A stretch of 411 nucleotides of DNA from Escherichia coli (GTDB lineage Bacteria; Pseudomonadota; Gammaproteobacteria; Enterobacterales; Enterobacteriaceae): assembly GCF_003334335.1 (NCBI RefSeq), contig NZ_QOWQ01000195.1. One strand, written 5' to 3'. The position numbers are program-made. Shown here in pieces: positions 1 through 411 of the stretch. Every line of letters begins with the position of its first letter. Within the stretch, counting starts at the first letter, position 1.

Positions 1-411
1 CCGTGTATCACGGGATTACCGTCCGTGTCCGTCAGCGGGGTTTTGTTCACCAGAATACTCTGCAGGCCTTTCACCGGACCTTCAATGGGTCCCTCACCAA
101 TCGCATCAATCACGCTCATCATCTGCGTGGATTTGAGGTTGTCTTTCGCCTCACGCGGTGTGTGCGCCCTGCCGCCACCTTTGCCCATTACATCACCTCT
201 TACCGTGATAATTGTTCACTCACAAAAACAACAGGCACCTCACCGGGTGCCTGCGTCATGACGGAATAAAATTTCTGAATATCTTCACATTTTCACACAC
301 TGACTGTGGCGCTTATAATTTCGCTGCGTTAGTTTTTTTTTGCCCGAGTAACAAAAACAACTCCTTAACATTAATCTTCATTTGTCTGTCCCCGCAGCTC
401 CGCGATCACTG

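Follow-up and report, generated by a model that had tools for sequence, protein, structure and literature searches.

The probable sigma-70 promoter of the small RNA gene pasB between tail genes I and J of a lambdoid Escherichia coli prophage

Genomic context of the analyzed region

The window, i.e., the whole 411-nt stretch of DNA analyzed here, corresponds to the gap separating genes I and J in a lambdoid prophage of E. coli, the tail genes of which are located on the minus strand. Several E. coli chromosomes match the window at 100% identity, e.g., NZ_CP145707.1 (L001), in which it occupies positions 6001-6411 of the locus L001 and lies between two minus-strand genes annotated as 'tail assembly protein' and 'gpJ'. 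The gpJ start and most of the 240-bp gap up to the I stop codon are covered by the window (Table 1). The same arrangement, with 98.1% identity to the window, is found in the prophage PP6 of EPEC E2348/69 (L003, NC_011601.1), and it is also present in many Stx and other lambdoid phages.

A set of 80 IMG/VR loci found via the I protein yielded 20 distinct I–J spacers. Two unrelated J-proximal modules were identified among these spacers, with a mosaic breakpoint near window position 263; from position 264 rightwards, a cassette encoding the small RNA PasB, described below, is common to all 20. In many prophages (L006 and similar loci), a near-identical I gene and the same PasB cassette are accompanied by a different J-proximal module that is approximately 100 nt longer (spacers of ~343 nt). 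This longer module holds a strong hairpin, AAACCCCGGTATC-AGCA-GATACCGGGGTTTTCTTTC, with a T-run on the PasB strand, which could be the terminator of another small plus-strand transcript located upstream of the PasB promoter.

In addition, a terminator-like hairpin (GCAGGCACC-CGGUGA-GGUGCCUGU, then UGUUUUUGUG) is located on the minus strand of the window at 222-254, approximately 20 nt upstream of the ribosome-binding site of J. Among homologues, the pairing of its stem is kept via a double change (GGCAC/GTGCC to GGCAT/ATGCC), and the loops differ. The U-rich tail of this hairpin is the complement of the J-leader copy of a direct repeat, ACAAAAACAAC, whose other copy lies in PasB. Late transcription would have to read through the hairpin, which might stop non-antiterminated transcripts before J, e.g., those coming from the upstream ompC-like moron in L001. 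This porin gene (L001 8656-9819) lies among the tail genes of the same prophage and on their strand, between the annotated minor tail protein L gene and a phage tail protein gene (L001 10026-10367). Downstream of J, the L001 region is interrupted by an IS21-family element.

As for the coding capacity of the gap, the ORF scan of the window detected no ORF on the plus strand 3' of the promoter described below, in agreement with a preliminary description of this DNA, which had noted that no plus-strand start codon follows the promoter. Two small ORFs on the minus strand, 285-371 (28 aa) and 313-381 (22 aa), were considered and rejected as not credible, since homologues differ by 1-2 nt in the length of an internal T-run, and such differences would change the reading frame; one of the two is annotated as hypothetical in phage PhiR12_1. 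The candidate small ORF that the plus-strand transcript had been proposed to oppose is the one at 285-371.

Table 1. Coordinates of features at the I–J locus (window numbering unless a locus is named)
Feature	Position	Strand	Basis and remarks
J (gpJ, tail tip protein) start	ATG at 188-186	minus	L001 annotation
Conserved upstream box TCTGA-N6-TCACATTT	274-292	plus	half-sites TCTGA 274-278 and TCACATTT 285-292
-35 hexamer TTCACA (5/6 to TTGACA)	292-297	plus	promoter scan, repeated on the extended locus; 65-98% conserved per position, no better than the spacer (52 family members)
-10 hexamer TATAAT (6/6)	314-319	plus	promoter scan; 16 bp downstream of the -35
-10, position 1	314	plus	58% conserved (52 family members)
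-10, positions 2-6	315-319	plus	92, 92, 85, 96, 94% conserved (52 family members)
-10 flanks	311-313, 320-321	plus	48-77% conserved (52 family members)
Predicted transcription start G326	325-327	plus	7 nt after the -10, inferred from promoter geometry
Putative 5' leader GCGUUAG + U-run	326-340	plus	upstream of the published PasB 5' end
PasB sRNA	341-423 (last 12 nt beyond the window)	plus	mapped from NC_011601.1, 81/83 identical
Likely seed	361-374	plus	CUCCUUCACAUUGA in EPEC, CUCCUUAACAUUAA in the window
PasB intrinsic terminator	CCCGCAG 391-397, loop 398-408 (11 nt), CTGCGGG 409-415, A416, U7 417-423	plus	
I (tail assembly protein) stop codon	429-431	minus	L001 annotation
Tandem-array loci	L103 7517-8442; L154 576-1490; L108 8163-8883; L189 4139-4622; L088 1-509		

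Promoter hexamers and their conservation

The two hexamers listed in Table 1 form the arrangement TTCACA-16 bp-TATAAT, an 11/12 match to the sigma-70 consensus with a spacer inside the accepted range of 16-18 bp. When both strands were scored, a match of at least 11/12 with a 16-18 bp spacer was reached in 0.48% of 5000 dinucleotide-preserving shuffles of the window. The near-consensus promoter-like sequence of the preliminary description is real, and it does point away from J, whose ATG lies on the minus strand. Two details had to be corrected, namely, the spacer, which had been given as 17 bp, and the left boundary, which had been set at 284. Position 284 belongs to the first of two TTCACA copies located 8 bp apart (TTCACATTTTCACA), 284-289 and 292-297. 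The first copy belongs to the invariant upstream box; with 24 bp between it and the -10, it cannot be the -35. That role falls to the second copy, whose conservation is limited to this subfamily. The promoter scan of the plus strand upstream of PasB revealed no other promoter-like site. In E2348/69, the promoter hexamers are identical to those of the window.

Conservation was analyzed in two independent samples. In the first, 19 of the 20 distinct I–J spacers, which are associated with closely related I genes, keep both hexamers intact, and the transcribed 5' body of these variants falls into two classes that can hardly be aligned. For the second sample, only the terminator sequence (CTGCGGGATTTTTTTAT) served as the query, which leaves the sample unbiased as to the promoter; it comprised 56 distinct upstream sequences, 52 of them belonging to the family. 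Positions 2-6 of the -10 stand out from its flanks in these 52 members (Table 1), which is the conservation pattern expected of a working -10. It should be taken into account that the whole stretch 264-331 is conserved, so the conservation of the hexamers cannot be counted as entirely separate from that of the region as a whole. In several subfamilies, among them the EHEC Sakai copies, a -35 cannot be recognised, and the near-consensus -35 is therefore restricted to this subfamily. In nearly all family members, the upstream box and the -10 are separated by a fixed distance.

Identification of the transcription unit as PasB

PasB (pathogenicity-associated sRNA B, E2348CN_0006) was described in the prophage PP6 of EPEC E2348/69 (Pearl Mizrahi 2021, PMC8550237). 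According to Table S6 of that work, it is encoded on the minus strand of NC_011601.1 from 1466343 to 1466261 (83 nt), between E2348C_1436 and E2348C_1437, and was probed on Northern blots with AATCCCGCAGTGATCGCGGAGCT. The probe is the reverse complement of window 396-418. The window differs from E2348/69 PasB by A for C at 367 (PasB position 27) and A for G at 373 (position 33); in addition, G334 of E2348/69, a position in the putative leader, is replaced by T. Homology, location in the I–J gap on the opposite strand, and a 3' stem-loop followed by a U-tract were all found at this locus. Most likely, the transcription unit of the window is PasB, a published trans-acting Hfq-dependent sRNA.

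The E2348/69 allele was confirmed by Northern blot, with a log2 fold change of -6.8 and -2.4 in Δhfq (PMC8550237). The stability of PasB depends on Hfq, and 37 RIL-seq interactions were recorded for it, in most of which it is the second RNA of the chimera; its trans-encoded mRNA partners include napF, fabR, caiF, map, and bfpB (PMC8550237). In uninduced lysogens, the RNA-seq means are about 5-15 for I and J versus 482-1082 for pasB (PMC8550237). Zhu, Shabalina & Storz 2026 mapped PasB variants across about 1,100 chromosomes, described PasB as embedded in an operon of phage structural genes, and used position 27 to distinguish PasB from PasB-2 (bioRxiv 10.64898/2026.05.13.724894). No Rfam family matches the locus.

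The preliminary description had left a choice between an antisense RNA and the promoter of a gene beyond the right edge. A plus-strand non-coding unit that is antisense in orientation and passes the right edge is indeed present; it is neither an unknown antisense RNA nor a protein gene, being the published PasB. Inspection of the extended sequence to the right of 411, where a plus-strand gene had been suspected, showed an intrinsic terminator that is followed by no coding gene. Its end at 423 leaves 5 nt to the I stop codon, and the supposed overlap of the transcript with the 3' end of the upstream tail gene does not occur.

Taken together, we estimate at about 0.8 the probability that TTCACA-16 bp-TATAAT is the sigma-70 promoter of pasB, a short non-coding gene opposite the tail genes. 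Since PasB is already published, this is essentially the rediscovery of the start signal of a known gene. The PasB promoter is described neither in Pearl Mizrahi 2021 (PMC8550237) nor in the 2026 preprint, in which the word 'promoter' is absent (bioRxiv 10.64898/2026.05.13.724894).

Predicted transcript ends and structure

The predicted start G326 is 96% conserved among the 52 family members, and a block of 90-100% conservation, GCGTTA (326-331), starts at this nucleotide. The sequence GCGUUA with a subsequent U-run of 5-9 nt is conserved across the family. The published 5' end at 341 (a coordinate at which the promoter region of the preliminary description happened to end) and the RIL-seq limit at 340 are located 21-22 nt past the -10, versus the expected 6-8 nt. 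Since this 5' end differs from a start at ~326, the link between the promoter and PasB needs an assumed 15-nt leader that is either processed or under-sampled. The RIL-seq procedure includes RNase trimming, which would cut an exposed U-run. The published end at 341 was obtained from RNA-seq coverage and an approximate Northern size; among the RIL-seq rows of Table S3 covered by the analysis, the farthest upstream PasB coordinate is 1466344, i.e., window 340. Primary and processed ends are not separated in either data set. The positions of the promoter and terminator bracket a transcription unit of about 98 nt. Probably, the primary transcript is ~98 nt long, and its leader of GCGUUAG and the U-run is trimmed or under-represented in the published data.

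Analysis of 38 family RNAs using RNAalifold found no conserved structure in the leader. A 5' hairpin in the single-sequence fold, in which the U-run leader pairs with the A-rich stretch 350-360, was unsupported by this analysis and was rejected, and the z-scores of single-sequence folds were only about -1. The only consensus helix across the 38 RNAs is that of the terminator, which was also detected by the terminator scan and the single-sequence fold. The arms of its stem are conserved, and the length and sequence of its loop vary among homologues. The terminator should not stop late transcription, because on the minus strand it has an A-run before the stem and no T-run after it.

According to the proposed scheme, RNA polymerase would start near G326, transcribe a mostly unstructured RNA, as predicted by folding, and stop at the predicted terminator structure (stem 391-397/409-415 and U7 417-423). 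The stable Hfq-bound species would begin at about 340-341 and represent the published 83-nt PasB, which means that the first ~15 nt are probably removed or poorly recovered. PasB would then act in trans on Hfq, where it was found ligated to many mRNAs in the published data, and pairing would most likely involve the single-stranded stretch 361-374, to which the comparison with six targets points.

Conserved upstream box

The half-sites of the box TCTGA-N6-TCACATTT are the best-conserved element of the cassette. Both are 96-100% conserved in the 52 distinct family members, compared with 58-96% for the spacer positions 279-283. Conserved half-sites, a variable spacer, and the fixed distance to the -10 are the signature of a protein-binding dyad; the box is probably a regulator site, possibly of the CRP/FNR type. 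The dyad 274-289 matches TGTGA-N6-TCACA at 9/10 positions (one mismatch). Such matches are expected at 0.04 per shuffled window, and 7 of 200 shuffles contained at least one. The centre of the box (281.5) corresponds to about -44.5 for a start at 326 and lies 32.5 bp from the first base of the -10. In class II CRP/FNR promoters, the site is centred at -41.5 (±1), about 29.5 bp from the first base of the -10, and the upstream box falls outside this position. The deviant C of TCTGA is itself 98% conserved in the 52 family members, so the cognate factor may not be CRP. Comparison by eye with sigma-54, sigma-E, sigma-28, Cra, FNR, and lambda CII-type sites found none that fits better than a CRP-like site.

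Overnight static LB gives higher PasB levels than virulence-inducing medium, which is the opposite of Spot 42; in the former, Spot 42 is low and FnrS is high (PMC8550237). This expression of PasB is compatible with CRP-cAMP or FNR control of the candidate box.

Base pairing and allele differences

Six RIL-seq target segments were compared with the unstructured part of EPEC PasB, and the longest contiguous Watson-Crick pairing was assessed against 500 shuffles. This test replaced a global RNAduplex analysis of PasB with whole target segments, which produced over-extended, uninformative duplexes. Pairing over 11 nt was found for napF (0/500 shuffles as long) and over 9 nt for caiF (14/500), and the 7 nt of E2348C_2648 were not significant (194/500). 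For fabR, a pairing of 11 nt was read by eye in a wider-padded RNAduplex output, and the contiguous test gave 6 nt (304/500). The pairings of all four targets map to window 361-374. This stretch overlaps the family-conserved block UUAAUCUUC (371-379) and is not identical to it; the 2026 preprint seems to favour the block as the seed (bioRxiv 10.64898/2026.05.13.724894).

The substitutions C367A and G373A fall inside 361-374 and abolish the long matches with napF and caiF. With two substitutions inside the seed stretch, the window allele probably has a target set other than that of E2348/69.

The RIL-seq partner recovered most often with PasB, by a wide margin (774 chimeras), is an intergenic RNA next to pasA in the prophage PP2 (PMC8550237). 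Between PasB 383-390 and GACAGACA of this pasA-adjacent RNA (L204, NC_011601.1 743482-743611), a contiguous match of only 8 nt was detected, and 62 of 500 shuffles did equally well. A sRNA–sRNA or sponge interaction between the two RNAs is possible.

Related genes in EHEC and tandem arrays

EcOnc22, EcOnc23, and EcOnc24 of EHEC O157:H7 Sakai, encoded by the prophages Sp15, Sp14, and Sp11, respectively, are listed as homologous (Tree et al. 2014, PMC4104026, Table S2). They are Hfq-bound, approximately 85 nt long on Northern blot, and destabilised in Δhfq (PMC4104026). The 2014 coordinates were corrected by an offset of +137 to +146, inferred from AgvB. After this correction, the peaks of EcOnc22 and EcOnc24 fall inside PasB-like genes in the I–J gaps of Sp15 and Sp11, on the same strand. 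The mapping covers Sp15 and Sp11 only, and EcOnc23 of Sp14 is assigned by the homologue listing in Table S2 alone.

In some lambdoid contigs, enlarged I–J gaps contain two to four tandem PasB-like cassettes of ~220-230 nt each (Table 1). Each cassette has its own TCTGA-N6-TCACA box, -10, GCGTTA with a U-run, divergent body, and terminator. PasB was reported to be typically single-copy (bioRxiv 10.64898/2026.05.13.724894), and tandem divergent paralogues may have escaped the BLAST criteria of that preprint. As a tentative and rather doubtful generalization, the I–J gap could be regarded as a slot for 1-4 PasB-type cassettes with one regulator at the -44.5 box, a trimmed leader, and swapped seeds. 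If so, prophages would deliver different sets of host-responsive riboregulators from one conserved I–J chassis.

Alternative explanations

The distance between the -10 and the published 5' end could also be explained if PasB starts directly at 340-342 from a weak promoter with a -10 of the form TAnnnT at 330-335 (TAGTTT in the window, TAGTGT in EPEC), the TATAAT being unrelated or serving a minor isoform. Such a start would agree with the published end at 341 and the RIL-seq limit at 340, as well as with the 100% conservation of T330, A331, and G342 and the T found at position 6 of the hexamer in all variants. However, 330-335 matches TATAAT at 3/6 positions only and was not reported by the promoter scan, and inspection revealed neither a usable -35 at 16-18 bp upstream (TGGCGC/GTGGCG, 2-3/6) nor a TG extension. 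Moreover, the U-run leading to G342 varies from 5 to 9 nt in the family, so that the distance from such a -10 to the start is not kept, and the equal conservation of G326, G328, and T329 is left unexplained. We consider this start unlikely. It is highly unlikely that the TTCACA and TATAAT hexamers arose by chance in AT-rich intergenic DNA and have no function, with PasB being cut from a longer transcript started elsewhere. Consensus matches alone are indeed no evidence of function, and the end at 341 looks processed. Against this, 11/12 is reached in 0.5% of shuffles, the hexamers have the right place and orientation for a Northern-validated sRNA, and the -10 is conserved in the way that a functional element would be. 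The upstream plus strand, which is the antisense of J, offers no other promoter-like site, and in the tandem arrays, every cassette is equipped with a separate box and -10.

Another explanation concerns the role of the transcript. Along its whole length, PasB is complementary to the late mRNA in the I–J interval, and 120 of the 125 terminator-anchored cassettes adjoin I and/or J. In addition, its 11-nt motif ACAAAAACAAC (350-360) is repeated in the J leader at 223-233, and PasB could pair with the late mRNA there besides its own antisense region. A cis-antisense effect on the I–J intercistronic late mRNA is therefore geometrically possible. For this to be the main role, pairing with the I–J late mRNA or convergent transcription would have to modulate J expression or the processing of late mRNA in lytic growth, the trans targets being secondary. 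This seems quite unlikely, since PasB terminates short of the I stop, and more than 130 nt separate its start from that of J, so that no coding sequence or ribosome-binding site is overlapped. Also, it is published as an abundant Hfq-bound sRNA with many trans partners in uninduced lysogens, and no co-variation of ACAAAAACAAC with the J leader was found in the Sakai or L076 variants. The reading of the hexamers as the promoter of a trans-acting sRNA is thus preferred.

Significance

Taken alone, the finding is the expected promoter of a published sRNA. Among complete E. coli genomes, roughly a fifth to a third carry genes of the PasB type. PasB interacts with the EPEC virulence mRNAs map, bfpB, cesD2, and espC (PMC8550237). 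In view of this prevalence and these interactions, knowledge of PasB transcription is useful, if not surprising. Of modest interest are the upstream box, the probable leader, the seed substitutions, and the tandem arrays. The conserved box indicates where to seek the signal that raises PasB in stationary or static culture. The annotation of PasB as an 83-nt RNA, derived from RNA-seq coverage, may miss about 15 nt of the primary transcript. Results obtained with E2348/69 may not transfer to the window allele, because both differences fall within the segment pairing with napF and caiF and, with less certainty, fabR.

Comparison with known systems

Like class II CRP/FNR promoters (e.g., galP1), the pasB locus has a dyad that abuts the -35 region; the -35 seems dispensable in related PasB cassettes, and expression is higher in overnight static LB. 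The difference is that the candidate site is centred at about -44.5 rather than -41.5.

AgvB and AsxR are likewise short Hfq-binding prophage sRNAs in which the terminator end is conserved and the 5' part varies, and the PasB region contains a CA-rich motif that loosely resembles GcvB target sites, of which the exact consensus CACAACA was not seen in the window by inspection. Unlike PasB, they are encoded at the PR' moron site (3' of PR') and not in the tail region. The identity of PasB with AgvB, an anti-sRNA, was suggested by the CA-rich motif and rejected because of this location and the lack of an Rfam match. The models RF02702 and RF02703 (AgvB/AsxR) did not match any part of the 1.7 kb surrounding the locus at E ≤ 1, and as a positive control, AgvB scored 96.5 bits at its own Sakai locus.

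EcOnc22 and EcOnc24 share with PasB the I–J gap, the strand opposite the tail genes, the upstream box, and the position of the -10, as well as GC(G/A)UUA with the U-run, the UUAAUCUUC block, and the terminator. They differ in a divergent body, a 6-nt deletion in the A-rich region, and another sequence at 361-374; their -10 is AATAAT, without a recognisable -35.

The nearest known system is E2348/69 PasB, which has the same I–J gap, orientation, and terminator as the window; it carries C27/G33 and G334, whereas the window allele has A27/A33 and T334.
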